A stretch of 63,567 bases of DNA, counting the filler, from Reclinomonas americana ATCC 50394 (taxonomy: Eukaryota), in NCBI GenBank assembly GCA_048213135.1. It is 7 parts of 4 records of this genome, joined end to end, with 100 filler letters (N's around TTAATTAATTAA, not from the genome) between each part and the next. Parts side by side here need not be neighbours in the genome. Positions count along the whole stretch, not along the records: positions 41,981 to 54,388 come from PS015769.1; 6 more parts are not named here. The stretch is one strand, 5' to 3'. The position numbers were made by a program, and so were the translations under genes. Below are positions 22,367 to 54,488 of this stretch, piece by piece; within the stretch, counting starts at the first letter, position 1, and each line of letters begins with the position of its first letter. The notes under the pieces were generated by a model that was not told the DNA's origin, did not search any database, and was given only the letters and a program-made list of their open reading frames with translations.

Positions 22367-22386
22367 NNNNNNNNNNNNNNNNNNNN

Positions 22387-31833: not shown

Positions 31834-31990
31834 NNNNNNNNNNNNNNNNNNNNNNNNNNNNNNNNNNNNNNNNNNNNTTAATTAATTAANNNNNNNNNNN
31901 NNNNNNNNNNNNNNNNNNNNNNNNNNNNNNNNNCGAGATTATACCGCCATCAATTCTCTGTGCCATCTGTCTACCTGCTGCCTGTCGAGC

Positions 31991-33122: not shown

Positions 33123-35804
33123 ATGGGTCGACGATGGGGAGCAGGAGCAGCAGCAGGAGGAACAGCAGCACCCAGGCGAGACACTGATGATGGTGATGAC
33201 TCTGTGTCCGAAGACGACGACGACGACGACGAGGATGGCGATGATGAGTACCGACAGCCGAGACCACCACCGCCATTAGCGGTGAGGCGAGGCCTTGGTG
33301 GTGTGCAGAGCGGAGGGCTGTTGCGAGTGGAGCAGGACGACGACGATGGAGGCATGATCATGCTCACACCGCCGGGACGGGCGGCGGGGCGCATGCAGGC
33401 GGCTCGCGCACTCGGTGGTGGCGGTGGCGATGATGATGATGATGATGCCAGTGGGCGACGAAGGCGCTCGAGGAGTAATAGCTTGACGAGAGGGCACAGC
33501 AGCAGTGGATCGGATGCCGAGGGTGGGCGCGGTCGCGGTCCGTCAGCGACCGCAGCAGCCGGAGGAGCGGCAGCTGCGGCCACAGGTGGTGGTNNNNNNN
33601 NNNNNNNNNNNNNNNNNNNNNNNNNNNNNNNNNNNNNNNNNNNNNNNNNNNNNNNNNNNNNNNNNNNNNNNNNNNNNNNNNNNNNNNNNNNNNNNNNNNN
33701 NNNNNNNNNNNNNNNNNNNNNNNNNNNNNNNNNNNNNNNNNNNNNNNNNNNNNNNNNNNNNNNNNNNNNNNNNNNNNNNNNNNNNNNNNNNNNNNNNNNN
33801 NNNNNNNNNNNNNNNNNNNNNNNNNNNNNNNNNNNNNNNNNNNNNNNNNNNNNNNNNNNNNNNNNNNNNNNNNNNNNNNNNNNNNNNNNNNNNNNNNNNN
33901 NNNNNNNNNNNNNNNNNNNNNNNNNNNNNNNNNNNNNNNNNNNNNNNNNNNNNNNNNNNNNNNNNNNNNNNNNNNNNNNNNNNNNNNNNNNNNNNNNNNN
34001 NNNNNNNNNNNNNNNNNNNNNNNNNNNNNNNNNNNNNNNNNNNNNNNNNNNNNNNNNNNNNNNNNNNNNNNNNNNNNNNNNNNNNNNNNNNNNNNNNNNN
34101 NNNNNNNNNNNNNNNNNNNNNNNNNNNNNNNNNNNNNNNNNNNNNNNNNNNNNNNNNNNNNNNNNNNNNNNNNNNNNNNNNNNNNNNNNNNNNNNNNNNN
34201 NNNNNNNNNNNNNNNNNNNNNNNNNNNNNNNNNNNNNNNNNNNNNNNNNNNNNNNNNNNNNNNNNNNNNNNNNNNNNNNNNNNNNNNNNNNNNNNNNNNN
34301 NNNNNNNNNNNNNNNNNNNNNNNNNNNNNNNNNNNNNNNNNNNNNNNNNNNNNNNNNNNNNNNNNNNNNNCAACACAAAGCAATGGGTGAGGTTTGCGCG
34401 AGGTGTGTGTGGCGATGATTCTTAACTTGGTGGTGATGCAGGGCTTCCGCCGCTTTGACGAAAAGGACATTCCGTTCCCCTCGTATCACACCAACCCAAA
34501 CATCAAGTGCGTACCGCGCTCCTTGCGTCTGTTGTCCGTGTGTCGCGACTCAACTGTGTTGCCTCAGAAAATCCCGATTTCCGTCTCGGTGGCTGGAGGT
34601 CGAGGGTTCCAAGATCGAACAGCCTCTTTCGTTGCGCACTGTAGGGGTTTGTACGTTCCCTTCCGCTCTTACTCATCACTCCACACCCGCCAGTGCACCG
34701 CGTATGCGTCGTGGGCCACGAAGGGAACGACTGCTCGAGCAACTAAGACAGCGCAGTCGCTCTCGATGGGCACGCTTCAAGACGTGGTTCCGTAACGTGT
34801 TCTCACGGTGCTTTGGCAAGGACGAAAAGTTCGAAGCCGAAGCCAAGGAGGAGTTGCTGTCGGAAGTGCAGGTGAGCGCCTTCTCGTCGCGGTGTCGTTT
34901 GCTGCCGTCTCTCACATTTCGCGTTGCAGAGGTACAATTTGTCGTACCAAGATCTTGGCGATGGGTTCCAGAACTCGCAGCTGCTAAGAGTACTGCGAGA
35001 GACAGAGCGCGCCACGGACCTGAACCTGTCACACAACCGCATTTACCAGAGCATGGCCGGCGTCCGGTTACCGCACCTGCAGATCCTCAACCTGTCGCAC
35101 AACGAGTTGACCACGTTCAAGTACCTGCCGATGGCCCCAAAGCTGCGTGTGCTCTACATGTCGGACAACCACTGCAAGACCTTGGAGGGCCTGGAGAAGT
35201 TCCCGACACTGGAGGAATTGTGGCTGGAGGGCAATCCCGTATGTTGGGACGACGACTTTCTCGACAGGTTTGTGTCGCTGCGGGAGTGGAGCCACACAAG
35301 GGGGAGGAGCGGATTGTCTTACAGTGCCCCGTTGCACACGCGCACAGACTACGAGCCATACTGCCAGCACTGCGGCTGGTCAATGGCGAGCTGGTGGTGG
35401 AGCTGGACGACATTGCCAAGATCTCGGGCATGTCGCCGGCGCACGGTGGTGCGCAGTACGAGAACCACTTCTGGGAAGAAGAGGAGGAGTACGAGGAAGA
35501 AGACGAGGAGGAGGACGGCGAGGACGATGTGATGGAATTCGACGACGAGGGTGAGGGCGTCGGCGGCAGCGGTGGCGTCACGCACGGACACGCCACTCGC
35601 GGTCGCAACGGCTTTTTGCACGGCAACGGTTTCGCTTCGGGCCATCGGAGACACGGCGGCGGCGGTAGTAGCGATGGCGACGACGACGACGACGATGGTG
35701 GTGGTGGCGATAGCGGCGAGTATGAAGAGCGGCTGTCGAGTGCCGACACTCGGATACGTGACTCGCGAATCCATTCGCGAGCTGCTGGTGCTGCTGCCCC
35801 CTAG
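33123..35804 (+). CDS. LRR protein with acidic tail (ANP32-related/SDS22-like), spans a gap
   Basis: YNLSYQDLGD, LNLSHNRI, LQILNLSHNELTTF, LEELWLEGNPV, LRAILPALRLVNG, poly-E/D tail; linkage of the N-terminal exon across 33594-34370 is assumed. Confidence 0.7.
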
Positions 35805-35938
35805 TTTAGTGATGGTACCCTTTTATTTATTCAGTACTCCTGTTTTGCGTAATATACACCAAAGCGCGTCGACGACAAGACAGAGAGACAGGGCGACGGA
35901 AGTCCGGTCCTGCATTGCAGTATTATCGCTTTTCTCCA

Positions 35939-38498
35939 ATGCCAAAGATCGAGACGACGCTGAACAGTGGAACGGGCAAGCACGAGCTTGTGCCCATTCC
36001 CGAGCAGCTGGTGAGTGAGAGACAGTCACCATCGCTCTTCACTCGCTCTCACTGTTACACTCACACACCACGCATCAGTCATTCGACCAAGGCTTCTTCT
36101 TTGCAGTGCGAGCGATCCAGATCCTGCGCGAGAAGAACAAGGGCGTGGTGTTTTGCGGCATTGCAGGCGCCAGTGGCAGTGGCAAGACGAGTCTCGCCAA
36201 GAAGATTGCGCAACTCATTCCCAAGTCACTGTGCGCACACACACTCTCTCTGTCTCTTTGCCACTCCCTCTCTCTCTCGTTCTCATGCTATGCGTGCAGA
36301 GTGATCTCACTGGATAACTACTTGGACTCGTCGCGCAAGGTGGTGGAGGAGAACTTTGATGATCCGCGTCTGATGGACTTTGATTTGTTGTGTAGCAATC
36401 TCGAAGACATCAAGAACGGCCGCGAGACCGACCTGCCTCTCTATGACTTCCGCAAGAGCGGTCGCTATGCGTACTTGAAGGCCCGACCACCTGTGTCACA
36501 GGTGTGTGCCTCGCAGCAAGTGTGCACTCATACGTGTTGTTGTTGCTGATGCATGCACGGTGAGGCAGGTGGTGATTGTCGAGGGCACGTATGTGCTGCG
36601 AGAGCAGATCCGACCGTACTTGGACCTGGCTGTGGCCGTCACTGGTGGCGTGCACTTTGATCTCATCAAGCGTGTGGTGCGCGACACGCAGCGCACGGGT
36701 CAGAATCCGGGCGAGTCACTGCACCAAATCACCTCCACCGTGCATCCCATGTACTTGGTGAGTGGGCGCGAGGCCGCAGCTGTGGTGGCATGTGTGTGTG
36801 TCTGACTGAGTTGGTGTGGTAGGCGTTTATCGAGCCCGACCTCAAGTACGCGCACATTACCATTCTCAACAACTTCAATCCGCTGAGTGGCCTCATGTCG
36901 CCGACGTTTTCGATCAAGAGCGACGTGCAAGTGCCTCCCGACAAGATTCGCAGTGTGCTGGCGTCGGTGGTGGGCGTCGAGCCCGAGTGCAAGACGGAAA
37001 AGTACTACGGTGCGCAGCTGCTGATGTTTTTCCTATGTGAATGCATGCTCGCTTGGTGCCTGACCGACGGACGACGTGCAGACATTTACTTGCATCCACC
37101 TGGCGAGAAGCCCGACAGCTGCATACATTGGATCCGCATGCGCAACGAGCGCGGTCGCTACGTGATCACCCTCTCGGAGTCGCTGAAGGAGGGCGATATG
37201 ATGATTTCGCCAACAATCGAGTTTGCCACCNNNNNNNNNNNNNNNNNNNNNNNNNNNNNNNNNNNNNNNNNNNNNNNNNNNNNNNNNNNNNNNNNNNNNN
37301 NNNNNNNNNNNNNNNNNNNNNNNNNNNNNNNNNNNNNNNNNNNNNNNNNNNNNNNNNNNNNNNNNNNNNNNNNNNNNNNNNNNNNNNNNNNNNNNNNNNN
37401 NNNNNNNNNNNNNNNNNNNNNNNNNNNNNNNNNNNNNNNNNNNNNNNNNNNNNNNNNNNNNNNNNNNNNNNNNNNNNNNNNNNNNNNNNNNNNNNNNNNN
37501 NNNNNNNNNNNNNNNNNNNNNNNNNNNNNNNNNNNNNNNNNNNNNNNNNNNNNNNNNNNNNNNNNNNNNNNNNNNNNNNNNNNNNNNNNNNNNNNNNNNN
37601 NNNNNNNNNNNNNNNNNNNNNNNNNNNNNNNNNNNNNNNNNNNNNNNNNNNNNNNNNNNNNNNNNNNNNNNNNNNNNNNNNNNNNNNNNNNNNNNNNNNN
37701 NNNNNNNNNNNNNNNNNNNNNNNNNNNNNNNNNNNNNNNNNNNNNNNNNNNNNNNNNNNNNNNNNNNNNNNNNNNNNNNNNNNNNNNNNNNNNNNNNNNN
37801 NNNNNNNNNNNNNNNNNNNNNNNNNNNNNNNNNNNNNNNNNNNNNNNNNNNNNNNNNNNNNNNNNNNNNNNNNNNNNNNNNNNNNNNNNNNNNNNNNNNN
37901 NNNNNNNNNNNNNNNNNNNNNNNNNNNNNNNNNNNNNNNNNNNNNNNNNNNNNNNNNNNNNNNNNNNNNNNNNNNNNNNNNNNNNNNNNNNNNNNNNNNN
38001 NNNNNNNNNNNNNNNNNNNNNNNNNNNNNNNNNNNNNNNNNNNNGAGATGCAGACGCTGGGCGGGCTCATGGTGCGTCCCCCGACACGCGTTACAGACAC
38101 GCGCACAATCTTACTCTGTTTATTCGATAGGCCCTCGGCTACCAAATCGGTGCCGTGCTGAACCGCACGTCCACCATTTATGCCTTCCACGACCACAGCA
38201 GCAAGGTGACGGTCGACGAGATTCAACAACTCAATCAATCGTACACGCAAGTCAAGGGCACGAATCGAGAGGTTTGTCGGAGGGTGGCAGGAGACGAATA
38301 GCTTCGCGGCCTCTTGACAGTTCTTCTCTGTTGCAGCGCGTCATGGAGATTGTGCGCGGTCTGGGCCTGGAGCACTCGAGTTTTGCGCTCTCCTACATTG
38401 AGCTGTACGTTCAGAAGCTACGACAAGCGCAGGAACAATCGGCCGCTGGCGAAGGCCCCTCACAACCACCTCCCCTGTCACTTCGTGCCAAGCTCTAA
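35939..38498 (+). CDS. Uridine-kinase-like plus CYTH domain protein (plant TTM1/2 and Dictyostelium UdkC-like), spans a gap
   Basis: SFDQGFFFAVRAIQIL, GIAGASGSGKT, ISLDNY, NFDDPRL, VTGGVHFDLIKRV.RD, AFIEPDLKYAHI..NNFNP, DIYLHPP..WIRMRN, LGYQIGAVL, YTQVKG, SYIE. Confidence 0.9.
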
Positions 38499-38635
38499 AC
38501 TGCGCGGCACAGTTTTTTCTTCGTTGCCTCCTTCCTCTCTGTGTGTATGCATGTCGTAAGTGAATCGGCTGTTAGAAAGAAGCGATTGCCCTCGCACACG
38601 TTATTCACTGGCTGCGCTGTGGCCACAGCGCCCCC

Positions 38636-39435
38636 TCACTTGACCACAAACTGCGGTTGACCGGCCATGAGTTGCCGCAGGAGCTGCGAGTGCTCCCGAT
38701 GAAACTCCACGTGATCGCGCTCAAAATTCTCGTCGTGCCGCGAGTCCCTGTCGACATTGTAGACCACGGTCTGCGGCTCCAGTCGCTGCGACGGCAGCAG
38801 CTTCACGGTGAGGCCCACCATGCATCCGTGGCCCAGCACGCAGCCGGCCGGAACGTGTGATCGCATGCGCAGCACGCAGTTGTCTCCAATCGTTGCACTC
38901 TCCGCCACTGAAATAAAAACAAGAGAGTCAGTCGTGCCGCACAAAGGGAGAGGGGAGATGGGCACGCCTGCTCACCAGCATCGACCTCCAGCACGCAGTT
39001 GGCACCGATGCGCATGGTAAAGTCGTCGCTGCTGCCAATCTCGCCTCTGCACCTCAACGCACGAGTGAGTCAGAGAGAACACAGTGCGCAACAGAGAGGC
39101 AGTGGACAACACAACTCTCGCCTCCGCGGGTTGCGCACACGCACGCGCTCCTCCACAACGCAGTCGGGGCCGATGACGATCGGCATCTCTGTGTGCGCGA
39201 GGTGTTGAGGAGAGCGTGTGCAACGATGTGCGTGTGGAGGCGGCACAGACACACCTCCTTCAATCACAGCTGTGGGGTGGATCACAGCACCAGCACGCAC
39301 AGTCACGCGACCAGTCAGACGCGCGTCGGCCGACACCACTGCACCAGGCTCGATCTGTATTTCACTGCGAGAGGGGGTTGAGAGAGTCGCGGGTGTTTCC
39401 CTGCACCACACACACAATGCACACGCCCACCTCAT
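38636..39435 (-). CDS. DCTN6: Dynactin subunit 6 (p27), left-handed beta-helix
   Basis: IEPGAVVSADARLTGRVTVRAGAVIHPTAVI, PIVIGPDCVVEE, MRIGANCVLEV, IGDNCV, RLEPQTVVY, terminal helix. Confidence 0.85.
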
Positions 39436-39503
39436 CGAACTTGAACAACAACAGAACAACGAAGAAGAAGAAGGTGAAGGACAACGAAGTACATTTGATT
39501 GAG

Positions 39504-40815
39504 TCAGCGTCGAGGAGCAGGTCGTGGGCTCGAGCCTGACTTGGGCTTTGGCCGTGCCACCGCCGGACCGCGCTCCTCGAGCACCACCGGCATCTGGTGC
39601 TCATCGAGACCGTTGACTCGGCGGTACAGGAGGCCGTACAGTCGCAACTGATCCTGCTCGGTGGTGACCCACTCGAGGCGATCGGCGGGGATGCGGTGGT
39701 CGGCCGCCATGATTCGTGCCGTTTCCGCCGCCGGCAGTGTGCTTGCGGTCTCGCGGAACCCCGGTCTGATGCGTGCCATGTACACGACTTGGGTCAGCGG
39801 ACCGGCGGTCTCGTCGAGCGTCGGAAGCCGGAACACGCGCGAATGGGTCGGGTGCGCGGCGTAGTGGATCGAGGGCGTGAGGTGAATGCGATTGCGTGCT
39901 GGGTCGGGAGGCGGTCGGCGGCCTCGTGCGCGCACGTCCACCACCGAATTCTGTGCCCACGCGCCCATTCAGCAACCGCAGCAAGTGGGGGAAACACAAT
40001 AAACGCGCAACTGGCACCAGCAGGCCGTCTTGGATCATGTAACGCAGGCGCAGCTCATCCTCGTCCCCGTGCACCTCGGAGCCGTGGAACGCCACATACC
40101 CGTCGCCCCAGTCGCGCTCAAAGTTCTCCACGCGCAAGCCGAGTCGCTCAAAGCCTGCACCGCACCAGTGAGACAGGAGGCGTGGTGAGATGGCAACGGA
40201 TGACCACACGAACCAAATGGCAGATAATACGGCTTGGGGTTGTCGCGCGGGCCGCGGTGGTAACCCGCATCGCGGTCCACAGCGCGGGAGTACGAGCGGT
40301 TCCACTGAATGTCGAAACGAGACTCGTCAACCTGCAGAAGACGTGAATGGAACTCGACAAACAGGAGGAGAAATCGTATGCGGATGCCGACGCAACAATC
40401 AAGTAGCCCGCATCCACCGCTCTGTCGAAGGTGGCCAGTGTGTTGAGTGCTGCGCAGAGAGAGAAAGAGAGAAGGTGAGTGAGAGCAGAACGCATGAATC
40501 GGTGTGTGTGTGTGGGAGACCTTGCAGACGCCGTGTGTGGTCCTCCATCACATCCGTCTCCACACGCTGCACTTCATGTTGCACGCCGCGGTGGTGGTCA
40601 TCTACGACACAGTAAGTGAGCAGCAGCAACAGAGAGAGTGTGTGTGTGAGAGAGAGAGGAAAGGAGCGCGCACCCTCAGCAGCCATCGTGACAGCCTGCT
40701 TATACGACTGCAGCAGCGACTGGATTCGAGAAAAGTGCAGCAGCAGGTTAAACATAGAAGAGTCGCTATCGGTGCCCGGTGCAGGAGCCACAGCGGCGAC
40801 GGCGGCGGCTGCCAT
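39504..40815 (-). CDS. NEURL4-type (PARP-like) ADP-ribosyltransferase domain protein, multi-exon
   Basis: PYYLPFG|W..FERLGLRV, YVAFHGS, IQDGLLVP, IHLTPSIHYAAHP, QVVYMARIRPG, DHRIPADRLEWVT, LYGLLYR. Confidence 0.75.
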
Positions 40816-40926
40816 GTTGTGCTTTTTTCGATTCTGACACTTGCCGGAAACTGCCGGGAATACAGAACAACTTGTCATGTCGTCGTCTGTCGTCTCTTTT
40901 CCACGCGACTTTGTGTGCTTTGCGCG

Positions 40927-41880
40927 ATGGGAGTGGGTTCCTCGTCTGACGCCTCGCACGTCCCCGCTTCCGGCTCCTCCGCGGCTGCGGCCGCCGTTGC
41001 GGGCGCAGACGAGAGTCGCGTGGACCCGCGACGGTTGCTGGAGGGCGCCACCAATGCGCGTGTGTTGCACCTCAATGTGGACGGTGTGCGGCAACTGGAG
41101 CAGGAGGTGGCCGAGGAGGAACGCATTCAGGACTCTTTACAGTTGCGTTTGTGCGTGTGTCAGTGCATTCTCCGTCTTGCTCAATGGTGCACACAGAACC
41201 GCATCGAATGAGGCCGCCGCGCTGCGTCAACAAATCGCGCGAGATGGCACACAGAGCAACTCGGTGGCGGCGGCGGTGGTTGGCGAGATGGATCGGGCGC
41301 TGCAGGAGTTCAGCGCCTTTGTGCAGACCGATCAGCAGCGGGCACTGCTGCTGCAGCTCATGGAGCGCTTTATTGCGGATCAGTGCGGTCGTGATGCCGC
41401 CGGTCAGGCGCTCTTTGCCAAGCTGCGGTGAGTGTGTGGCGCCGTGCGTGACTCCCTGTGCGTGCATGTGCTGAGAGAGAGCGGCGGTGGGGGCAGAGAT
41501 GCGTTGAATGGAACCCCGTCGGCTAGCTTTGTCAGTGGAGGTGGTGGCGGTGGTGGTGGTGGTGGTGTTGCGCCTCCGCGACACATTTCAGAGTCGCTGG
41601 CTGAGCTGTTGACGGCGCGCGGACAGCTGCCTGGGCCGCAGCAGAGTGCTATTGTGGAGCGTTTCCGAGATGTGGAGACGCCGCCGGCCGGTTATTTCCC
41701 GGCGGCCGCGCCGGCTGCCCTGCCGTCTCCGCACACGTGCCCGCTGCTTCATCAGGTGCGCATGCACTCTTTTTTCCTTCCCTCTTCTCGGTGGCGTGGA
41801 TGGCTGACACGTGCGAGTGATGACACACAGCCTCCGCGTGAGCCCGTGTTCGGCACCGACGGGCAAGTGTACGAGTACGG
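40927..41880 (+). CDS. Hypothetical protein with the start of a U-box-like motif, truncated at a linker
   Basis: Begins MGVGSS (MGxxxS myristoylation pattern); ends HTCPLLHQ|PPREPVFGTDGQVYEY. Confidence 0.6.
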
Positions 41881-42013
41881 NNNNNNNNNNNNNNNNNNNN
41901 NNNNNNNNNNNNNNNNNNNNNNNNTTAATTAATTAANNNNNNNNNNNNNNNNNNNNNNNNNNNNNNNNNNNNNNNNNNNNAGAAAAAACTTACTATTTTG
42001 CATCACCGGGCAG

Positions 42014-42958
42014 GAATGTGCGACGGTGCTGATGGAGCAGCGCCCGGTGTGCCCCATTTGCCAGGCGGTGGTCAACCGGTTCGACGAGGACAGTGAGCGG
42101 TTCGGCCTGCACTTTGGGTACGAGGAGGCGGCGCGCAGACTGCCGCCGGAGGAGCTGATGCGTATCAAGCGAGACGAGCACTCGTGGGAGCTGCAGGTGG
42201 CGGACGGACCGCGCGAGGACGTGGCGGCCATGTCGACCCGCAGCCTGGCGCTCGTCATGCTGCAGGGTGTGGAGGAGCGGCATCGCACGACACGCGAAAT
42301 GTACGGCGACAGCCACTCGCAGACACTGAACGCGCTGGTGGCGCTGGCCGACGCGCACCGCCGAGCCAAGCAGTACGACGTGGCGGCCGCCATGTACGAG
42401 CGGTGCCTGGAATCCAGGCGTCGTTCAGCGTCGGCCGCCGCCGACACGGACGAGATTGTGTCGATCCTGTTTGCGCTGGCCGACGTGCGCCGATCGCAGA
42501 ACCAGCTGCCGGAAGCCGCTCGTCTCTACCGCGAGTGCCTGCAGCTGCGCCGCGAGATTGAGCGCCGTGCTCTGGAGGCGGAGACGGCGGACGGCGACCA
42601 CACCGTGTCGCTGCTCAAGGCCGACAAGTTGCGCGCCATGCAGGCGCTGGCCGACACGCTGCGGCTCATCGACGACCGCGACGCGCTGGAGGAGGCCGCC
42701 CTGCTGAACGCCGACTGCGTGGCGGAGCGAGTGGAGTTGCTCGGCGAACGGCACAACGACACGCTGGCGTCGCTGCGCGAACTCGGCATCACCTACTGCC
42801 GGCTCGGGCGGTTCGAGGAGAGCATCGAGACGCACCGCCGGCACTTTGACTTGTGCCGCGAGGTCTACGGCGCCGGCCATCGCGAGACGCAAAAGGCACT
42901 GTCGCTGCTGTCGGCGGCGGTGGCCTACCGCGATGCAGGCGGCAGAGAGAGGCAGTGA
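42014..42958 (+). CDS. 3' part of a RING-finger plus KLC-type TPR protein
   Basis: ECATVLMEQRPVCPICQAVV (RING C-terminal half); YGDSHSQTLNALVALA, LGERHNDTLASLRELG, YGAGHRETQKAL repeats. Confidence 0.8.
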   Translation, partial: ECATVLMEQRPVCPICQAVVNRFDEDSERFGLHFGYEEAARRLPPEELMRIKRDEHSWELQVADGPREDVAAMSTRSLALVMLQGVEERHRTTREMYGDSHSQTLNALVALADAHRRAKQYDVAAAMYERCLESRRRSASAAADTDEIVSILFALADVRRSQNQLPEAARLYRECLQLRREIERRALEAETADGDHTVSLLKADKLRAMQALADTLRLIDDRDALEEAALLNADCVAERVELLGERHNDTLASLRELGITYCRLGRFEESIETHRRHFDLCREVYGAGHRETQKALSLLSAAVAYRDAGGRERQ

Positions 42959-43423
42959 GAAAATGGTGAATGAATATCAATGATACAGTATATCGGTGTC
43001 GAGAATACATGCTCCGCAGCGATGCAAAGAGCGACGAAGTGAGTGTGTATGCTGATTCACGCTCACGAGGCACTCGCCCCCTTGCAGCTGCAGCAACAGC
43101 GAAAGAGTGGCCACGATGATTACGTGTGTTCGAAATTAGACAAGGTGCGTTCTCTTCACGGCCACACAGCCGCTGCCGCCACCGACTCGCCACAGCAGTG
43201 GTAGAGCAAGTGTGCGCACAAACCAGAGACACGGGGGAGAAGAAAAAGAAGGATCTGACAATCAATGGCTTTTCAGACGCACAACTTCTCGCACTCTCGC
43301 ACCTCCCCTCACCCCTCTCTCTCTCTTTCCCTCGCCTGCTCACGTTATACCACCACGTGTGTCACTTTTTATTCACCGCACATTGACGGCACTCTCAGCA
43401 CACACACACTCATTTGTTTCTCC

Positions 43424-44005
43424 TCACGAGGTCACATACAGCGACCCGCCACCCTTGATGAGGTAGCGCACATTCTGGTCCTCGATGACGATGCAGCCCT
43501 CGCTGGGGTTGGCGCCGCAGCTGCCGCCATGAATCAAGAAGCCGGAGCGGCCACAGGCGTTGCCCGAGATCTGCGAGAGCGGGTAGCAGTACGCCATGCC
43601 CTTGAAGGTGGTCATCGAGCCGATGCGGTAGGTGCCGCGTGGCAGCGGGCCCACGCCCACATCGCACTGGCACGAGGGGTTGTTGCGGCAGCGGCCCGAC
43701 TGTCCACTGCAGCCGTACACGTTGATCTGGCCCTTGTTGTCGAAGCGCGGGCCGGTGAAGTGGCCCGACGACTGGCTGTAGAAGTAGGCGTAGTCGGTCA
43801 GCGTCTGCTCGTCCACTGGCGGGAACAGCTCCTCCAGGGTCTTGTTGAAGAGCGCCATGGCGTTAGCCTCGGTCCACTCAAACTGGCCCACGGGCGAGAA
43901 GTCGTCGCCGGCCGCGAAGGAGTTGGCGCTGAGGTCGTAGGCCGTGGCCAGCACGGTGGTCAGCGCGAGTGCGGCGATAAAGGTGAGCAGGAGACGAGCG
44001 CGCAT
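43424..44005 (-). CDS. Secreted Tlde1/DUF2778 (L,D-transpeptidase-like peptidoglycan effector) homologue, intronless
   Basis: 193 aa; signal peptide MRARLLLTFIAALALTTVLATA; YFYSQSSGHF, GCSG, NNP, GPLPRGTYRIG, GRSGFLIHGG, SEGCIV. Confidence 0.85.
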   Translation of the reverse strand: MRARLLLTFIAALALTTVLATAYDLSANSFAAGDDFSPVGQFEWTEANAMALFNKTLEELFPPVDEQTLTDYAYFYSQSSGHFTGPRFDNKGQINVYGCSGQSGRCRNNPSCQCDVGVGPLPRGTYRIGSMTTFKGMAYCYPLSQISGNACGRSGFLIHGGSCGANPSEGCIVIEDQNVRYLIKGGGSLYVTS

Positions 44006-45060
44006 GGGAGAAGGGGAATAGGGAACGAGAGGTGTCCGGCAGGACTTCCGTCAGTTGGGCTGTTGCTGCGGAGGGATGGCCTCGAGCACGCTGGCACTGA
44101 TTGTGACCACTCTTGAAGGGATCCGTGACTTGTGGAGTCAACGCGATGTCAGACGTCGACTTCGACAAGCATTTACGGTGAGAAACTGATAACAAAACAC
44201 TTCATTCACCACATTCCAATAATGCGATAAACGCCCACAAATCCCTAAATGAACCGCTGCAGCCGAGAAGAAATACAACAAGAAACAGTAGTCCACTCAC
44301 ACAGTTAGGTGTAGGATGAGAACAACGATGCGCCTTCATGGGTGGTCGATGCAAAGCGTTGCACAATGCTCATGGAAACTCGAGCTCGCGAACGAGACAC
44401 GTACGCGTGCACGCTGCGCTGCGGTGGCGCGCTGCGCACGATCGCAGTTTGCCTCCACTCATCCAGCAAAGTGGCCTCGTCCATGTCAGAAAAAGTACCC
44501 TCCCACTGCAGGGATGAGAAGCGCTGCGATGACCAAGTCCAGCCACATTTACACAATCTCCCTTTTTCTCGTTATCGACCATGTCTCGACGGCCGCCACC
44601 TGCGAAAGAATAATTCACACCTCGCGCACGCCCTTTGATTTTTCCTTTTCACCATCTCGTTGCAACCAGATATCGTTTAAAGAATATGCGGAAAGAATGA
44701 TTCTTTTTTCTTCGTACAAACACTTTTTCGGAAGAAATCAGCGTGCGCTTTGTCCTCTATCTTACGCTTACGTCGCTCGCCGATCCCCAGCGCCCACCCC
44801 AGGTCTGCCACTGATCGCTCATCTTGTACAACCCTCCAGTGGGACGTGACTAGTTGCCGAACGGAACGAGATTAATAAACACCAGCTCGCCGTTTTGATT
44901 GCACCTGTCCGGATTCACGATGATTCCCAAAACGGAAGAGAAAGAAAGAGAAAAACAGTGTGTGTGAGAGAGAAGGCAACTCCAATCAATCAATCTCGAC
45001 CACCACACCATGGGCTGCACTCCCAGCCTCCACATTCGCCAAGTGGGAGGCGTGACCACC

Positions 45061-46359
45061 ATGGCCAGAAAACGAGTGATAGTGGCGGCGGTGACAGTGA
45101 ACGTGGCGGCGACACCACAACACATGACGCCAGTGGCCGACAGTGGTGCGCTGCATCGCGACGAGCTGCTGCAGCAGAGTGCGCAGTGGGACGACGAGCC
45201 AGCACCACCGATGGTGCGTGTGTGTGTGAGAGAGAGAGAGAGGAGGGAGAGAAAACTGGGTTGATAATCACTGCTCGGTTTCACTCATCTGATGTGCAGA
45301 GCACGCACACACGGGCGCGAAGCATGGCCTACACCACTCGCACCATGGACGACACAGCTGGCAGTGAGTGGACAGTGGGCTGCACCACCGAGTTGGTAAC
45401 AATGGAAACCAGTCGCACGGATCACGAGCGACGAAACCGACGACGCAGTTCAGCGTTTCCCGGGCGGCAGTTCAGCACAGGCGGCGGCGGAGACGGTGAT
45501 GGCGACGATGATGATGATGACGACGGCGGCAACGAGCAGGTCGATGATGGCGACAACGATGGGGCGTTGTTTATGTGCGACGGCACTGGCCAGTCGGTTT
45601 TTGACGTGGACGCGTGCAATAGGAAACAATCGGTCTGCACGCCGAACGGCAGCGAAAGAAAGGCCACGGCGGTTTCTATTAAGACGAGTAGTGCGGCACG
45701 TATCGCTGTTGGTGGTGGCGGCGACGACACAGCAGGCGGTGATAATGTTGCGTACTCGTGATCAAAAACTGCGCAGCTTGTCCGGCATCCCTGCTCACCT
45801 CCATTGGCATGTATAGGTGCGACCCACTGCAATGTCGGCGGTGCCGGTTATGCGGGCTCGCCGCGGACGGCAGCCGGTGAAGCTGGGCAGCAATGCACTG
45901 GGTGTTGGAGGACAGGCGGCGAGTGAGAGTGGCGGTGTGCATCGGTCCTCCTCGCCCGCGCCGGTGGCAGGCAGCAACCGCAGCGGCACGCCGGTGAAGA
46001 GCCTGATGCAAGCAGTCGGAAGCGACTCCAGCCGGAGAGAATCCATCTGCTCCATGTTGCGTGCCGTCATCATCGACACGTGCATCCGCACGCTTATCGT
46101 ACGCTTACCGTTTGTGCAAACACATTGCAGCTTTTCGGCAAACAAGACCTGGCTGAGTGAGGACCTGCTGGTGAGCAGTGGTCTCAAGCAAACCGGATCG
46201 ACACTGGCGTGCGATGACCACCGACCGCAAGCACCGGTGGACGCGGGAGCCGAACTGGTGCGACTCGAAACCCGAATCAATCAATGGATCGACACGCACG
46301 TCCTTGGCCCCGACGCGTACATGCACGACTACGATGCGCATGGTATCGCGGCCAGGTGA
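45061..46359 (+). CDS. Hypothetical low-complexity protein, multi-exon
   Basis: Exon-like blocks joined by GT-AG introns, ending at TGA 46359; no family recognised. Confidence 0.45.
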
Positions 46360-46420
46360 CAGCAGCGGGGAGAGAAAAGAGAAGAGAATGTAATGTACAC
46401 ACGAATGTTATTTTGCCAAC

Positions 46421-49023
46421 TTACACATCATACACTTGTATGTGTGGCACGTCGCGAATGCCAAAATCGCGATACGCGCGCTTGGCAAAGAGCTCCCACG
46501 CCTGTGTGAGAGTCTCCTTGATCGTCTCTATGGGGTACGTGTTGCTGGAGTCGGCGGCTGCCACAAAATACGGGTTTCCGTTTAGTCTGGCCAAACTGCA
46601 TCGCCGCAAAGTGAAAAAAAGGGATGAGAAGACGGAAGTGCGTTTGTCGAGAGAGGACCGCCCAACGCAACTGCATGTAGTTGGTGTAGTGTGGTCGTTC
46701 GCCGGAGAAGAGCTCGATCACCACCGACGCCGGATGCAAGTTCACAATGTTGACGAGGTTCGCACCATGCTCACCAATCAGTACGCCCGCCGAGCAGTAA
46801 AAGAAGCGCGTCTGCTGACCCACGCTCCAACTATCGCGATTCGCATTGAGCTACGGCAGCAACAACAAGAAGGCGCACAATGGTCTCGCAACTTTTGCAA
46901 GTCCACCAGGCTGAGGGGAATCTTGCGGAACTTGGCAAACTCCATCACCGCGTCCACCACCTCCTGCTGATTCACGCCGGTGCGCTTGTGCCGAACGGCC
47001 CACACCAAGTGCGGCGGCTTTTCTTCCCTGCAATAATAATTCGTCAGCTCCACGTACTGCGTGTGCGTCACCACCACTGCACGCAACTCCTTGCCCTTGC
47101 ACATGCGCTGCGTGAGCTCGCTGGGCGACAGCAGCGGTTCGTCGTGTCGCAGGCCGGCCTCGGAACGCAGCAGAGCGTTGCGCGCTGCGGCAAATGCCCA
47201 CGGAGTCGGCTCGCCGTGATACACATGATTCATGTGTTGGTGGCCGGCGCTGTGGAACGGTACATACAAGCGCTCCGTCACCTCCAGGTCCTCGTCACCG
47301 GCACCACCACGCTCCTCCGCTGTGTGTGCAGGCAGGTGAGTGAGAAGACATTACTCTTTCTCTCTCTCCATCCACCAGCACGCAACAAATGTTCCAGTTC
47401 TTGAACGCAAACTCGCGATACCGTCGCTGCACGCCACGGTACTCGACGTGTGGCTTCTCCAGCAACACGGGCAACGCAGCCACCCACTTCGGCAGCTGCT
47501 CCAACAGACTGTGCCAGTAGTTGTAGTAGTACTTGACGTGGAGCGTGACCAGCTCGGCGAACTGTGGGTGATCGGGATCGGGCGACCGGTCGGTGGGCGG
47601 CGCACCCAGGCGATCGCACAGCAAGTTCTCCGCCTCGTGTACTGCACGCGCGAGCAAAGAACTGAGTGCACGTGGACACACAACACAACACAGGATGCGG
47701 TGAGTGAGAGTCGACGAAACATCTCTCCCATTGGTACATGGGCGCCGAGAGAATCAGAGTGCCGGGCATGGTGTGATCGTGAGGCAGAATGATGATCTCG
47801 CCCTCCTTCAGCAGGTACACGTCGGAGTTGATGTCGCGCGGACTGATTTCCGCCAGACCCTGCGGCACAAACGCATGCGGTGAGAATGTGTGTGTGTGTG
47901 TGAGTGAGTGAGAAGGAGTGGAGAGTTCCGCACGTGGTACGCCCAGTCTCCCGAGTACTCCCACGAGGCGTCGCGAGGAAACTCGACAGCAGACTCGCAC
48001 AACTCGCGCGTAAAGTAATTGGGTCGCGCCGTCCACCCCAGGCCCATGGCCACAAAGTCCAAGTGCCTCCAATTCTGCGCACAGGTGAGAAACAAAAGAA
48101 GCTGCACGTGCAAAAAAAGAATGACAGACGAGCGCAACACTTGACTGCCATCGCGACAACACGTCGGCATTGGACTGGAGACGCGGACACGTGTCGCGCG
48201 GATGCACTGTGCGTGGTGCGCCAAACACAAGTTTTCGGTTCTTGCCGGTCGGATCGCTGTACATGTGCGCCGCCGACTGGCTTGCACACTCGGAGAATGC
48301 ATATCGCACCTTGGCCAGCTATGCAAAGGGAAGCACACACAAGTCAGCAAATAAAAACACCCCTCACGCGCTCTCACAGCATCGCCTTGACACACAACAC
48401 ACACCGGGCACGCCACAATGTCATAGTACACAATGTACTCTTTGCGAAACGAGCCTGCTCGCTGGCACTTGAGCACCTCGTGATTGTGTCGCAGCGACAC
48501 TTGCTCCATCACCAACTGCTCCAGTTGCCACTGCATGCGCAACAACAACGACGACGTCCATCAACATCGCACGACTCGACTTGTTCCTCAACATATGCAT
48601 GCTTCAAACCGTTCGTGCAAGTCGCCGCGACTCCTCCCGCGCGCTGCCGCCCAGCATCTCCCCGAGACACTTTTCCACATCGGTTCCACTCTGAAACACG
48701 GTGGCATCACTCGCAGCTGGCGTCGATGTCACCGCGGGTGGTCGCGGTGGTAGTGGAGGCACCGAGGAGAACACCTTTGCGCCCTCCAACGCACGCGACT
48801 CCCACGACTTCCACACTGCAGTCTGTGTGTACACCTCTAGTCGGTTCCCGCGATGCACACCACCACCGATCCACTGTTGTGTGGCGGCAGAGGATGATGA
48901 CGAGGAGGGCGGCAATCGCATGTAAAACATGACCAGCAGCACAGTGACTACGGCCACGGCGGCGATTGCGATGCCGTAGAAGAAGAGTGGGGAGCGTGGT
49001 CCACCACGCCCCAGCGCCAACAT
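46421..49023 (-). CDS. Type II membrane glycosyltransferase family 61 (DUF563)
   Basis: N-terminal TM segment LFFYGIAIAAVAVVTVLLVMFY; YNYWHSLLEQLP; GVLIGEHGANLVNIVNLHPASVVIEL. Confidence 0.8.
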
Positions 49024-49090
49024 GACAGGAGGAGAGTGACGGATGCAGAGGAGAGGGACACGCACACGTGGTGGGACATCACTTCTCGCG

Positions 49091-51820
49091 ATGTGGTGGA
49101 CCGCAGCAGTGCCGCGCATTGGTGAGTGTATGCCTGTGCGCGACTCACATCTCTCTCTCTCACACACACACACGCACAGCGCGTCGGCTGTTCTCCTCTG
49201 CACCATCGGCAACCGAACTGAAGAAGCCCAAGCTGGTTATTCTTGGTTGCGTTGTCTCTCTCTCTCTCGTGCGCACAACGCTCTCTGGTGACTCACACGT
49301 CGCTGTGCAGGCACGGGTTGGGGTGGCTTCCGAGTGCTCAAGGTCGGTGCTGCATGCGCGTGCTGCGCGAGGAGGCTTGCATTTTTGTTCACTGCTGCAT
49401 GTGTGTGACAGGGCATTGACATGGACAAGTTCCGTGTGACTGTGGTGAGTCGCGTGTGCTGTACGACGCACGCGGAGAGCAGCAACTGAATGGATGCCAT
49501 GTAGATCTCGCCACGTAACTTTTTCCTGTTCACACCACTGCTGCCGTCGACTGTGACTGGTCTGTGTGTCTGTGTGAGTGTTTGCAAGCTGCAAGCTGCC
49601 CCCACTGATCATTGTTGTTGCATGGGTGCATAGGTGTTGTCGAGTTCCGGTGCGTTGCGGCGGCTACTGCTGCTGTGCTGTTGTGTGGACAACTCACTTA
49701 CTTGTATTTGTGTTTGTTTATGGTTGTGCAGATCGATCACGGAACCCGTGCGCTCGGCGCGACGCCAGCCGTTCAACTTTATCGGTATGCCTACCTACCA
49801 GTCACACTTCGCTGTCAGTGCTGCTTCTCACGTCGCGATGCATGCATCAGAGGCATTCGCCACCGATATCGACGTGGTGAAGCAGACTGTGCGATGCCAG
49901 TTGGATCGACCGCGAGAGCCCGGCGAGCACGGCTCGCAACCGTTTGACGTGCGATACGACCAGGTGCGGCGCATACACAGTCGTAGCTTTGAGCAAGCTT
50001 CCGCTCACAGTCGGTGACGCAGCTGGTCATCTCTGTCGGTGCCAAGAACTCCACGCTCAACGTCCCCGGTGTCAAGGAGTATGCGTGTCATCTGAAGGTG
50101 TCGCTGCGCATGCCCCTCGCCCTTCTTGTGTTGTGAAAGTGCTTACCGATGTGTTGTACAGGAAGTGCACGAGGGTTCGCGTTGTGCTTCAACCTGCGGA
50201 TATCTTCGACAACAACTCACTGTCGCGTCTGCACAGCCCGCGCACTGCGGTACAAGATTTTGGACTTGTTTGAGCACGCCGCCGATCCCAATTTGACACA
50301 ACAGCAGCGCAAGGAGTTGCGGATGCCTCTTGCATTCTTTACTCCTCCTGCCATGTCTCACACTCTCGGTCATGCAGTCTGCTCCATTTCGTCATTGTTG
50401 GTGGTGGAGTTGCGCTCGCACTGTCTGCTGCGTAAGCGCCATTCCTGTTTCCTCGCTCACCATACCGTGTGTCAGCCAACGGGCGTGGAGACTGCGGCCG
50501 AGGTCGCTGACATGGTCAGCGAGGATCTTCGTCGCCTGTATCCCGATATTTGGCAAGACTGTGTCATCTCGTTGTTCGAGGTGCGCCGTCTTTCCTTTTT
50601 TCGTGTGTCGTCGTTTGCCAAGGGTTCGTCGCACAGGGTCGTGCACTGCTGAGTGCATTCGACCAAGATACGCAAAGTTGCGTGTCTCGTGCTGCTCGCT
50701 TGTGATGTGTGGCCAGTGCTGACCAGACCGTCGATTGCAGCCTATGTGGAGAGGTCGTTGAAGCGCTCCAACGTCGACGTGCGCATTGGTGTGCGTGTCA
50801 AGGAGGTGCGCGAGAAGGAAGTGATTCTTGGCGACGGCACCGTGGAGAAATGTGGCATCATTCTGTGGTCCACCGGTGAGTGTTGTTTGTGGGTGCCCGC
50901 CTCCTCGTTGTCACTCTCGATCAGACCAATCGCACAGGCATTGCACCTCGCGATTCCGTGCGCGGTACGCGATTGCACCATTGTGCCTGTCGTTCTTTTT
51001 TGTGTGTTTATTCTCTCTGCAGGGTTCAAGAACATCCCGAAGAACGAGCGAGGCATGATTGTCACGAACGAGTTCTTGCAGGTGACAACCATGGGCTCCG
51101 AGTGATTGCGGCGCGGTCTCACTGCGTGCATCGCAGGTGGTTGATGCGGACGGCACGACGGGGATCAACGCCGAGGCGCGCGAGGCGCTGAATACGCGAC
51201 GCAACGTCTACGCCATCGGAGATTGTGCCACGATTGTCGGACGACCGCTGGCTGCCACTGCGCAGGTGGCACAGCAGGAGGGCAAGGTTCGCCACCATTG
51301 CTGTGCCCGTGTTCTCCCCAGCTGTGTGTGTGTCGATGACATGTGTGCTGTGTCAAAAAAAGTACGTGGCCAAGATCTTGAACCGCGGCGACAAGCAGCC
51401 ACCGTTCTCGTTCATCAATCGCGGCATGCTGGCCTATGTGGTGCGAACGCGGTTGCTTCTTTGTTGCGTATGCGTGTGCGTGTCTGTAACTCTTCACATG
51501 CAGGGCGGCTACCGTGCGATCGCCGACATCCCCAGTGCCTCTGTCAAGTCCAGTGGCTTCATGTCGTTCCTCTTCTGGCGCTCCGCCTACCTTACCATGC
51601 TTGTGTCGCTGCGCAACAAGGTGGGCGCCGCCACAGACACGTTGATGGGTGGATGACTCTGCACTGACTGTTTCCGCCGACAGATCCTTGTACCCATTGA
51701 CTGGACCAAGACTCTGCTCTTTGGGTGCGTGAGCACAAACACAGAAAGCTTCGATCAAAGCTTCCGTCCGTTCCCGTCCCTCACATCTCACATGATAGAC
51801 GGAATACGTCGAAATTCTGA
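49091..51820 (+). CDS. Type II (alternative) NADH dehydrogenase, mitochondrial NDE/NDA-like, many short exons
   Basis: Targeting-like MWWTAAVPRI|ARRLFSS; KPKLVILG|TGWGG, ISPRNFFLFTPLLPS, FVIVGGG|PTGVETAAE, VYAIGDC, ATAQVAQQEGK, FWRSAYL, RNK|ILVPIDW..FG|RNTSKF*. Confidence 0.95.
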
Positions 51821-51864
51821 CAACGGAGGAAGAAGGAGGCACCCATCCACATTGACTATTAAAT

Positions 51865-54388
51865 TCATTGTTGCCAGGTGGAGCGGTGCGCAAAGAACGT
51901 GGTACCGAATTGTCTCGGGGTAGAGCTTGATTCACCCGAAGCGTCGGTTTTCACCGATCCTGTTCGTGCACGTGCCGACTGCACACGACTGCCTGCATTG
52001 GAGCTCCCCCTTGGTCTCCCGGCGTTGATGGCCAGAATCTGCTCGGCAGGCGATGGTGGCGACCGCGGAGCCTGGAATGCTATACCGCGCGATACATCAA
52101 TAGGCCCCACAGCAGCCGCTCCTCCTCCTCCTCCTCCTCCTCCACTGCCTCCACCTCCTGCTGTTGCTTTCCCGGCGCCTTGTCTGGACGACAACTGACC
52201 CGAAAAGCCACTTGCCGCAGCCGTCTGCAGATCAAAGTGGAATTGCGGTGCCGTGTCTTCCACAGCAGAGGCGGTGCTGGCCACAGAGCTGCACTCCAGA
52301 CGTCAGTATGTGATTCGTCGTCGATGCACGACACGCAGTTGTTGGGACTCACCCCGTTTCGTGTCGGTCGGTCGCCGTGTCCGCTGGCGGCGGCGGTGCT
52401 TGGCCCGTCGTGTTCCAGAACGTAATCACTCGGTTCAGCTCGGCGTCAAGTTGGAGCTGCCACCGATAACACATGTGAGCGGAAGCCGCCACAGGAGACA
52501 CCACATGGAATGCACTCAACAATTTCCTCGCGCAGCTTTTGCGCTTCACGGCTATCACTCGGCACGCGGCGCAGCTTCTCGTGGCGCTCCTCCAACTGCT
52601 CCACCAGCAGCTTCACGCCCGGATCGATTAGTACAAGACTCTTGCGGTTGATGACCCCCGACATTTTCTGGTCACTGTATCATCATTCAACGTCAGTCGC
52701 CACCCAAGAAGCTGCGGGCGTCCAGTGGCATTCGCAACTAGGTGTCAGTGGCGGGCGTCAAGTCGCGGACCTGTGCTTTCAGTCGATCGACTTGCATGCG
52801 AAGCGAGTGCAGCTCGCTCTGCAAATCAAAGTACTCCTTGCTGTGCGTCACAAGAGGAGGTTGAGCGACGACAACCAACAGGACCACCGAGAGCAAAGGC
52901 ACGTACCGAGGTAGCGCCACGACCTGGGAGTCGAACTGCTCCTGCGGATTACCCTGCCCCAGCGCCACCAGTTGCGATCGCAGTGCTTCCTTCTCGGCCC
53001 ACGTTCGATCGATTTCAGACTCGGCTATCACGGCGAAAGGTGAGAACCAGGCGCACGCAGGTGAGGGAGTGACGCAGATCACGCACCCTTGATCAGCAGC
53101 ATTCGCAGCTGATTTTCCCTGTATGCCGCACTCCGACCAAACTGCACCCAACCCAGTCATCACGGTGAGCGCAAATAGGGAATAAAACAAGACGTACACG
53201 CACGCAGTCCACCTCTTTCATGCTTGTCGCGGCACCCTCGACAAATCTGGTAAAGCACATTCGATATACACTGGCCACATCGTTCTGCTGCTTTGGTCCA
53301 TTGGCCTGCAATCATTACATACACGGTGAGTACCCGTGATTCTCACCATCTCCCGTCTTGCAGTCAGACACTGACTCACCAACATGTAAGTGATGGCCGT
53401 CGTCGCAGAGCGTTTCCACAACTCGGCGACCTCGTCTGCCACGGCGACCCCGTTGGGGCCAGCAGGCATCCGTGGCGACGAACCGGAGCCGCCAGCAGAC
53501 GACTGCCGTTTCTCCTTCTTGCCCCCCTGCCGCTGTCGCTGCATGCTGGCCATCACCGAGGCTGCCGCCACGGCCACTGCCGTGTCTTTGAACGCTGGCA
53601 GAGTGGCACGCAGCGCAGTGGGTGTCACCAAGCTTCCGTTGCCATGCTCAGCGCCGCCGTTCTCGCCACCGTCGTCGCCCTCGTCCTCGCTGTCGGCCGC
53701 GAAGCCTTGCGCAGGTGCATTGCCCGAAAATTGTCGGCATCGACGGACGCTGTCGGCCAGAGGGAACTCGAGTAGACTCGCCACACCCTGTGTCAGTGCC
53801 TCGCGTTTCTCCTTGGTCAGCTGCTGCGACGCCGAGGAAGGCCGATTATTGGCTTTGCCGGCTGCGAAGAAATGTCGGTTAGACAGGCACAAACACAGGA
53901 GAGATCAACATGCGACTACAACGCACATGGGTCGGCGCTGTACGGGCGCATGTTGGTACGAGGTGTGTCGCGCTCGGCCGCATGTCTCTCATCATGTGGT
54001 CCTCCCGGCACGCTGCATCCGTCGCCAGTGAGCACTCACGAAAATCGTGCGACGAAGGAAGAGGACGAAACAGGTGGACAGTGGACGATGTAAGCCGTGG
54101 GCCAGGAGAGGGTATGGTGTTGTGCGGAACCACGCCCACCGGCGCAGACGACATGGCGAAAGACTGCAACATTGGTCGCCTGCCACCAGAAGGCGATGCC
54201 GTGAGTTGTGGCGGTGGAGCCATGCGGGAATCCATCATGCCCTCGTCGTCGGAGAGTGGTGCAGGTGAGCCGTCGTCGTCAAAGAACGGCGAGCCACGCA
54301 TCATGTCGAGCGATTGCATCGGCATACCCTCAACTGCACCAGACGAATGAACAAAAATATAAGCAAGCCGTCGCATCTGTTGCGTGCA
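51865..54388 (-). CDS. Hypothetical coiled-coil/low-complexity protein, 3' part
   Basis: Spliceable exons including EYFDLQSELHSLRMQVDRLKAQV and VKLLVEQLEERHEKLRR. Confidence 0.55.
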
Positions 54389-54488
54389 NNNNNNNNNNNN
54401 NNNNNNNNNNNNNNNNNNNNNNNNNNNNNNNNTTAATTAATTAANNNNNNNNNNNNNNNNNNNNNNNNNNNNNNNNNNNNNNNNNNNN

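Follow-up and report, generated by a model that had tools for sequence, protein, structure and literature searches.

A cysteine-rich Tlde1-like protein with a putative secretion signal, encoded in the Reclinomonas americana genome, belongs to a family of protists and giant viruses

Dae proteins of ticks and other eukaryotes are reportedly a bacterial wall-degrading toxin fold that has been kept with a secretion signal, and their genes descend directly from the Tae genes of bacteria. Tlde1a (Tae5), an effector of the Salmonella Typhimurium type VI secretion system (T6SS), is described as an L,D-carboxypeptidase and D-amino-acid-exchanging transpeptidase acting on tetrapeptide stems, with residues H121, H129, and C131 and two conserved disulfides (PMC9638812). 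The main text of a 2020 preprint on Tlde1 places the DUF2778 superfamily in α-, β-, and γ-proteobacteria and makes no mention of viruses. Here we describe a Tlde1-like open reading frame (ORF) in a window of 63,567 nucleotides (the whole stretch of DNA that was analyzed) from the eukaryote Reclinomonas americana ATCC 50394 (GenBank assembly GCA_048213135.1). The ORF product is a member of the Tlde1 domain family, and it is neither part of a T6SS effector-immunity system nor a direct domestication of a bacterial gene. We lean, if only modestly, toward the reading that the ORF is a functional, single-exon chromosomal gene of a secreted, cysteine-rich Tlde1-like family of protists and giant viruses and that it encodes an L,D-peptidase acting on peptidoglycan. 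As judged from the alignments, the Tlde1 proteins of bacterial T6SS and of phages are no more than distant relatives of this virus–protist family. The family is apparently undescribed; a title- and abstract-level search found no literature on Tlde1-like proteins (PF10908, DUF2778) of giant viruses or eukaryotes, papers naming PF10908 deal with the T6SS and phage lysins, and the viral proteins are already auto-annotated in databases as "Tlde1 domain-containing." The ORF and the parts of its product are located as follows, in positions of the window:

43424..44005, minus strand: Tlde1-like ORF, a single exon of 193 codons plus stop (stop codon 43424-43426), from Pfam and homologs
43940..44005, minus strand: putative endoplasmic reticulum (ER) signal peptide MRARLLLTFIAALALTTVLATA, residues 1-22, from hydropathy, with a putative cleavage site
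43790..43939, minus strand: acidic spacer or pro-region, residues 23-72, from charge count and low model confidence
43838..43846, minus strand: N54-K-T56 sequon in the spacer, the sole N-x-S/T of the protein and a putative glycosylation site
43427..43789, minus strand: catalytic Tlde1-like domain, residues 73-193, of L,D-transpeptidase fold by Foldseek and VIA-align
43529..43531, minus strand: codon of His159, the catalytic His equivalent, matching H121 of Tlde1a by motif
43493..43495, minus strand: codon of Cys171, the nucleophile equivalent in S-E-G-C, matching C131 of Tlde1a by motif

The ORF starts at the first ATG within a 208-codon stop-to-stop frame, and its product matches the Pfam family Tlde1_dom (PF10908) over residues 100-178 with an E value of 1.1e-11 and 45.7 bits, above the curated cut-off of 30.1. 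The match to Pfam YkuD (PF03734) is below threshold (E = 0.0043; 18.1 vs. 23.4 bits), and an NCBIfam scan of the product returned no family. Residues 54-193 align with homologs without internal gaps, which makes a single exon plausible. Mean Kyte–Doolittle hydropathy is 2.37 over residues 6-20, the spacer has nine D/E and one K/R over residues 25-72, and its motif FN(K/S/Q)T..ELF is common to the ORF product and its relatives in the clade that contains it (hereafter, the window clade). His159 and Cys171 lie 12 residues apart within GFLIHGG...SEGC, and the whole protein has eight cysteines. A preliminary description of this DNA, made from the sequence alone, had proposed an intronless 193-aa ORF with a signal peptide, an acidic spacer, and an intact motif His and Cys, and had placed it in DUF2778/Tlde1. 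The frame reading and the gapless alignment, the putative hydrophobic leader, the charge count, and the two motif residues all agree with that account, and the hidden Markov model check that it called for gave the PF10908 match above cut-off.

The relationship to L,D-transpeptidases that the same description had put forward is borne out by fold comparison. With an AlphaFold model of the ORF product built from 24 sequences, the best Foldseek matches in the PDB were all of the L,D-transpeptidase fold (Bd1075, LdtMt2, and YkuD; E values from 3.5e-4). VIA-align superposed residues 68-193 on L,D-transpeptidase catalytic domains with Z scores of 10-11, among them LdtMt2 (8a1l_A; Z = 11.0, root-mean-square deviation [rmsd] 3.0, 100 residues) and YkuD (1y7m_A; Z = 10.8), and on Tlde1a (7uo8_A) with a Z score of 8.7, an rmsd of 3.2, 103 aligned residues, and 20% identity; Z was at least 8 for 73 of 551 chains. 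A PDB sequence-profile search returned only 3g7m_A at chance level (E = 0.18) and did not recover Tlde1a. The top matches in a BFVD structure search were phage Tlde1-domain proteins (E values of 2e-6 to 2e-5; 25-32% identity), with no named giant virus. Alignment columns were counted in three groups of rows: the window clade (16), viral-type rows (82), and bacterial plus phage rows (39). The His159 column is His in 16/16, 80/82, and 39/39 rows, respectively, and the Cys171 column is Cys in 16/16, 79/82, and 39/39; all three groups also retain GPxP, R153, S168, G170, and R180.

A word-indexed protein search found 220 homologs at E ≤ 0.001, the best 120 of which are 47-76% identical to the ORF product and all carry PF10908. 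Among 1.84 billion representatives searched with HMMER, 779 reached E ≤ 0.001, of which 80 reached ≤1e-10 and 10 reached ≤1e-30. With 220 and 779 homologs at E ≤ 0.001, the match is far above chance. Eukaryote data sets supplied three of the best 120 proteins: a gene model of Dinobryon divergens and one transcript each from MMETSP and EukProt. In the ESM Atlas, the three nearest clusters, of 57, 82, and 109 members, are labeled "Tlde1 domain-containing protein" and are 100% Viruses, with Nucleocytoviricota the commonest group. In IMG/VR, 36 loci were found; 32 are 51-67% identical, with a GC content of 24-36%, and 11 of these are named "GVMAG," and loci L046-L049 are 36-41% identical and phage-like. 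A relative is encoded by 486 of 542 pattern matches in JGI metagenomes, and among the best 80 of these loci GC is ≤41% in 78, and GC at third codon positions (GC3) of the homolog genes is 0.09-0.43 in 78. A single-protein search of 185,579 prokaryote species genomes (one per species) found no relative, and an alignment search of the same genomes found 13 loci at 31-45% identity, mostly Pseudomonadota.

Among the 72 ORFs of six of these 32 viral loci, Pfam identified minor capsid P11, DUF5760, DUF5767, PCNA, TFIIS, metacaspase, photolyase, FEN-like exonuclease, kinase, and glycosyltransferase families, and no immunity family. Across the 32 close loci, a P11-like gene recurs in 15, a WLM-like gene in 14, a FEN-like gene in eight, and a kinase gene in eight. 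The P11-like gene lies within a few kilobases of the Tlde1-like gene (L015-L017, L019-L023, L025, L026, L031, L037, L042, L043, and L045), and the WLM-like metalloprotease gene is directly downstream of it in its 14 of the 32 loci; the recurrence of these two neighbors means that the gene neighborhood is stable in that viral lineage. At another giant-virus locus (L014), a 1061-aa BspA-type LRR protein with Listeria-Bacteroides repeats is encoded directly upstream of the Tlde1-like gene (1183-4365, plus strand).

A quick phylogenetic tree was constructed from 139 rows, obtained by reducing 205 sequences at 88% identity, and a careful tree from 65 rows hand-picked from those 139 (16 window-clade, 34 viral-type, and 15 bacterial or phage), with supports given as ultrafast bootstrap/SH-aLRT. 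The close family is split from bacteria and phages at 100 in the quick tree and 100/100 in the careful tree. The ORF product falls in the 16-row window clade (99/90), which includes a EukProt transcript (P0061) and no giant-virus contig. Discrete characters agree with this placement: G81, G148, G185, and G187 of the ORF product are common to 13-14 of the 15 other window-clade rows, whereas the viral-type rows have H in 81/82, N in 79/82, S in 81/82, and A in 71/82 at those columns, and the one-residue insertion before C99 that is found in 81/82 viral-type rows is absent from the ORF product. Other characters set the whole virus–protist family apart. A hydrophobic leader is found in 13/16 window-clade, 66/82 viral-type, and 0/39 bacterial or phage rows, an N-x-S/T sequon ≤45 aa upstream of the domain in 11/16, 79/82, and 1/39, and the cysteine columns 99, 106, 112, 140, and 163 are specific to the family. 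The ORF product has what marks this family: at least 50% identity, the leader, the upstream sequon, and the five extra cysteines. The leader, sequon, and extra cysteines are traits of eukaryotic secretory-pathway proteins, and they suggest that the protein is cleaved, glycosylated, and disulfide bonded.

The phylogeny with bacterial and other homologs that had been proposed as a check thus gave a divided answer. Bacterial homologs do exist, but the nearest kin are giant-virus genes and protist transcripts, and the preliminary picture of a lone effector domestication from bacterium to eukaryote does not survive: bacteria and phages are 31-45% identical and lie beyond the 100/100 branch, whereas viral and protist kin are 51-67% identical. 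Because these close relatives are giant-virus genes and protist transcripts, giant viruses most likely shared in the acquisition or mediated it, and it would be older than the Reclinomonas genome.

Three further relatives deserve description. A metagenome protein of the window clade (P0149; 315 aa) has a lysozyme-like SLT_3 domain (E = 2.8e-23) fused to the Tlde1-like domain; its N terminus resembles a poor gene model. Homology apart, this fusion is the sole direct hint that the clade might act on peptidoglycan. A 451-aa leader-bearing protein encoded on a 1.7-kb contig of 59% GC (L075; 122-1474, plus strand) has a window-clade Tlde1-like domain at its C terminus, and the sole result of a search for longer fused forms was the same protein on a 12.5-kb contig (P0297). 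Its cysteine-rich N-terminal 300 aa matched no Pfam family; the Atlas gave RlpA-like DPBB/Barwin at 0.79, a weak lead, and a single-sequence AlphaFold model had a pLDDT of 44. The third, a viral-type copy of 173 aa (L107; 901-1422, plus strand), lies on a contig of 48% GC, has a GC3 of 0.59, and adjoins long CTT/AAG-type repeats encoding poly-Leu or poly-Ser; it could be within a eukaryotic genome rather than a virus.

The window consists of seven contig pieces (1-23183, 23284-31833, 31934-41880, 41981-54388, 54489-59810, 59911-62123, and 62224-63567) joined by six linkers, each of 44 N, the 12 letters TTAATTAATTAA, and 44 N. The ORF lies on the fourth piece (PS015769.1), a contig of 12,408 bases with no N. 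The apparent low-GC dip in the third piece (31934-41880) is due to its inner gaps of 777 N (33594-34370) and 814 N (37231-38044). The linkers and the neighbors of the ORF on its contig are

41881..41980: linker N44-TTAATTAATTAA-N44, left border of the ORF contig
54389..54488: linker N44-TTAATTAATTAA-N44, right border of the ORF contig
23184-23283, 31834-31933, 59811-59910, and 62124-62223: other linkers, same pattern
41981..42958, plus strand: TPR_12/TPR_10 repeat gene (Pfam), convergent with the ORF and truncated by the contig start
50385..51725, plus strand: gene for NDH-2 (type II NADH dehydrogenase), from Pfam Pyr_redox_2 and NDH2_C pieces

The NDH-2 gene has nine coding segments in three frames, separated by gaps of 59-147 nt, several of them GT..AG, and because this multi-intron gene is on the same contig, the ORF contig is eukaryotic so far as the assembly shows. 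The Tlde1-like ORF, present as one copy within the whole window, is thus encoded in the eukaryote's own genome, with linkage by assembly only. Its GC3 is 0.91, compared with 0.88 for the TPR neighbor, whose stop is 465 nt from the ORF stop, and 0.64-0.88 for 14 Pfam-supported host segments. Pfam scans covered ORFs of ≥50 aa in 44100-54388, ≥100 aa from 38046 onward, and ≥125 aa earlier. Those of the ORF contig (41981-54388) detected no immunity-type family (e.g., DUF2195), no T6SS, VgrG, PAAR, or Rhs context, and no viral hallmark family, and the 6 kb between the ORF and NDH-2 contains no genes recognizable in them. When 659 ORFs flanking the gene in the 32 viral loci were compared with the window, none matched outside the Tlde1-like ORF. 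The eukaryotic setting first proposed for the ORF therefore holds, given the multi-intron NDH-2 gene and the host-like GC3, as does the absence of an adjacent immunity gene, with no DUF2195-type family on the contig. The claim that intron-rich genes share its contig holds for NDH-2 with its nine segments but not for GT61, which had no match in any Pfam scan of the window ORFs, and the single contig that had been assumed extends over 41981-54388, beyond which the window is linker-joined pieces.

Elsewhere in the window, Pfam identified an intron-rich gene for an animal-type heme peroxidase in at least three pieces (3457-5125, minus strand) and an intron-rich PRMT5 gene in five pieces across frames (11472-13539, plus strand), and contigs other than that of the ORF also carry an FGE-sulfatase in two pieces, fn3, WD40, LRR, STAND-NTPase/TPR, and Rsa3. 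A PRMT5 exon is about as similar to plants as to animals, oomycetes, and chytrids (55-73% identity), and since it has no relative above 73%, the organism appears poorly sampled. STAND/NACHT-type NTPase pieces and TPR_10/TPR_12 repeat genes occur on several contigs, at 1383-1973 (minus), 22386-23183 (minus), 36019-36546 (plus), and 41981-42955 (plus), which suggests an NLR-like gene family in this eukaryote. The TPR neighbor of the ORF was considered as a close paralog of a TPR gene on another contig, but this was rejected (E = 0.002), and it adds no evidence of linkage.

Two sequencing runs are listed as containing the ORF sequence (small shares of 0.05 and 0.04), neither of them listed as RNA. 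A 658-letter contig from the first (X1), a run whose kind is guessed and is not recorded as RNA, covers 43430-43969 at ~93% identity, with 38 other letters and six gap letters, and diverges beyond both ends of that interval. By codon position, the 32 substitutions listed fall 23 at third, six at first, and three at second positions (P = 9.5e-6 for ≥23/32 under equal thirds); 28 codons are affected and nine residues altered, four of them in the domain. Three small insertions, six letters in total, lie in the acidic spacer (43906-43915) and keep the frame. The leader of the X1 copy begins differently from that of the ORF, and together with the insertions this means that the spacer and leader evolve faster than the domain. 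The second run (X2) contributed a 156-letter piece with three differences. The third-position pattern indicates purifying selection on a coding gene that is present in two related genomes or as two copies.

By analogy with Tlde1a and the peptidoglycan enzymes of the same fold, the ORF product probably acts on bacterial peptidoglycan. Residues 1-22 would direct the protein into the ER, where the acidic spacer, a possible pro- or sorting region, would be glycosylated at its conserved N-x-T sequon. Residues 73-193 are predicted by the model and the fold matches to form an L,D-transpeptidase-type domain, which may be held by disulfides among the seven noncatalytic cysteines. Cys171, activated by His159, would attack an L,D peptide bond of peptidoglycan stem peptides and, as in Tlde1a, trim tetrapeptides or swap the terminal D-amino acid, leaving bacterial walls weaker. 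Its targets would be bacteria either outside the cell or taken up into the food vacuole, and the giant-virus copies may act in the same way from infected cells.

Several observations weigh against this interpretation. A virus that infects eukaryotes has no obvious need of a peptidoglycan enzyme. The ORF product has S-E-G-C where Tlde1a has H129 before G-C131, so its chemistry may differ in detail from that of Tlde1a. The structural model is only moderate, with a mean pLDDT of 67, a poor spacer, and loops 105-119 and 151-155 below 50. In the careful tree, the 34 viral-type rows hold together at only 77/86, and an approximately unbiased (AU) test in which the ORF product was moved to the viral-type rows, a group named only after inspection of the tree, lowered the log likelihood by 27.2 without rejecting the move (p = 0.141). 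Linkage of the ORF to NDH-2 comes from the assembly alone, and near-identical DNA contig from the sequencing runs amounts to only 156 nt. The leading alternative is that the protein keeps the fold and family but does another job, as an enzyme on a substrate other than peptidoglycan (D-amino-acid-containing or cross-linked peptides) or as a binding protein. Its substrate would be on the host surface, nonbacterial prey, or the virion, and its presence in giant viruses would reflect that role. Bacterial killing does not readily account for so many giant-virus copies (486 of 542 metagenome stretches; three Atlas clusters, of 57, 82, and 109 members), and the five extra cysteines with the divergent loop 105-119, the E before G-C where Tlde1a has H, and the Pfam YkuD score of 18.1 against a cut-off of 23.4 bits all fit such a change. 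We nevertheless judge it unlikely, if well worth keeping in view: among the matches listed, the solved relatives with Z ≥ 8 are all peptidoglycan L,D-transpeptidases or L,D-carboxypeptidases, the catalytic and groove residues common with bacterial Tlde1 are invariant, and one relative carries the lysozyme-like SLT_3 domain.

That the ORF is instead what is left of giant-virus DNA inserted recently (an endogenous viral element), perhaps silent, rather than a domesticated host gene, is improbable. The closest named family context is viral, the AU test permits the ORF product among viral-type rows (p = 0.141), and the 6 kb up to NDH-2 is without recognizable genes, but the GC3 of 0.91 resembles that of the host and lies well outside the viral range of 0.09-0.43, none of the 659 viral-flank ORFs matches the window outside the Tlde1-like ORF, and no viral hallmark family was found on the 12.4-kb contig. 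A clade at 99/90 without a viral contig, the agreeing discrete characters, and the signature of purifying selection in the third-position pattern against X1 point the same way. The idea that a T6SS Tlde1 effector passed directly from bacteria into this eukaryotic lineage alone could draw on domain-level homology to bacterial Tlde1 proteins and on a published precedent of domesticated amidase effectors in ticks, yet it would leave the best bacterial matches at 31-45% identity over the domain while virus and protist proteins reach 51-76%, place bacteria and phages beyond a 100/100 branch, and ignore a leader, sequon, and extra cysteines that are common with viral and protist proteins and absent from the 39 bacterial and phage rows; we regard it as highly improbable. 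Least credible of all is that bacterial contaminant DNA, a chimeric contig, or a contig that comes whole from a high-GC giant virus produced the locus. The ORF is intronless, the assembly is fragmented, and linkage along the contig comes from that assembly; against this, no close bacterial relative was found in 185,579 species genomes, the convergent TPR neighbor at 465 nt has a like GC3 (0.88 vs. 0.91), NDH-2 with eight intron-like gaps and PRMT5 in five pieces are cellular rather than viral, and the leader and sequon are of eukaryote type.

The ORF product belongs to a distinct branch of the Tlde1 fold outside bacteria, adapted to the eukaryotic secretory pathway and present in at least one eukaryotic chromosome, in protist transcriptomes, and in many giant-virus lineages with conserved viral synteny. 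This branch raises the question of what role a peptidoglycan-type enzyme has in a virus of eukaryotes. A tentative extension, in our estimation doubtful, is that a secreted peptidoglycan-editing enzyme, derived from the bacterial Tlde1 toxin fold, is widespread in giant viruses of protists and has been exchanged between them and their hosts. Infected cells would deploy it as an antibacterial or prey-digesting weapon, and so would protists that have retained the gene, R. americana among them. If true, viruses of eukaryotes would be a party to the conflict between eukaryotes and bacteria, and they would be the route along which a bacterial toxin fold came to be domesticated in eukaryotes.

Tlde1a (PDB 7UMA, 7UO3, and 7UO8) has PF10908 and an L,D-transpeptidase-derived fold in common with the ORF product, together with the His...S-x-G-Cys motif, a short His–Cys spacing, and a conserved Arg six residues before the His. 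Tlde1a lacks a leader, is delivered by T6SS injection, and has Tldi1 as its immunity partner, whereas the ORF product combines a leader and acidic spacer with an N-x-T sequon, five extra cysteine columns, and E before G-C. A T6SS effector-immunity pair is also at odds with the ORF in its setting, where no immunity gene is adjacent, and in its hydrophobic leader. Phage Tlde1-domain proteins have the same Pfam domain but group with bacteria and have no leader or sequon. The YkuD-type enzymes (LdtMt2, Bacillus subtilis YkuD, Csd6, Pgp2, and Bd1075) are the best structural matches (Z scores of 9.5-11.0 over ~100 residues) and have a His/Cys catalytic pair, as in the ORF product, which differs from them in falling below the Pfam YkuD cut-off, in its shorter His–Cys spacing, and in having no LysM or other peptidoglycan-binding domain. 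Closest are the giant-virus "Tlde1 domain-containing proteins," with 51-67% identity and the same length class, leader, sequon, and cysteine pattern. Their genes differ in being AT-rich (GC3 of 0.09-0.43) and in lying among viral genes, whereas the ORF has a host-like composition and adjoins cellular genes, and their products have an extra residue, mostly Cys, before C99 and differ from the window-clade Gly at four columns (H81, N148, S185, and A187). Dae embodies the same concept as the ORF product with an amidase fold rather than an L,D-transpeptidase fold, and the nearest kin of the ORF outside eukaryotes are giant-virus genes (51-67%), not bacterial toxins (31-45%). Beside the Dae amidases, the Tlde1-like protein of R. 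americana would thus be a second, structurally unrelated bacterial wall-attacking fold kept by eukaryotes.

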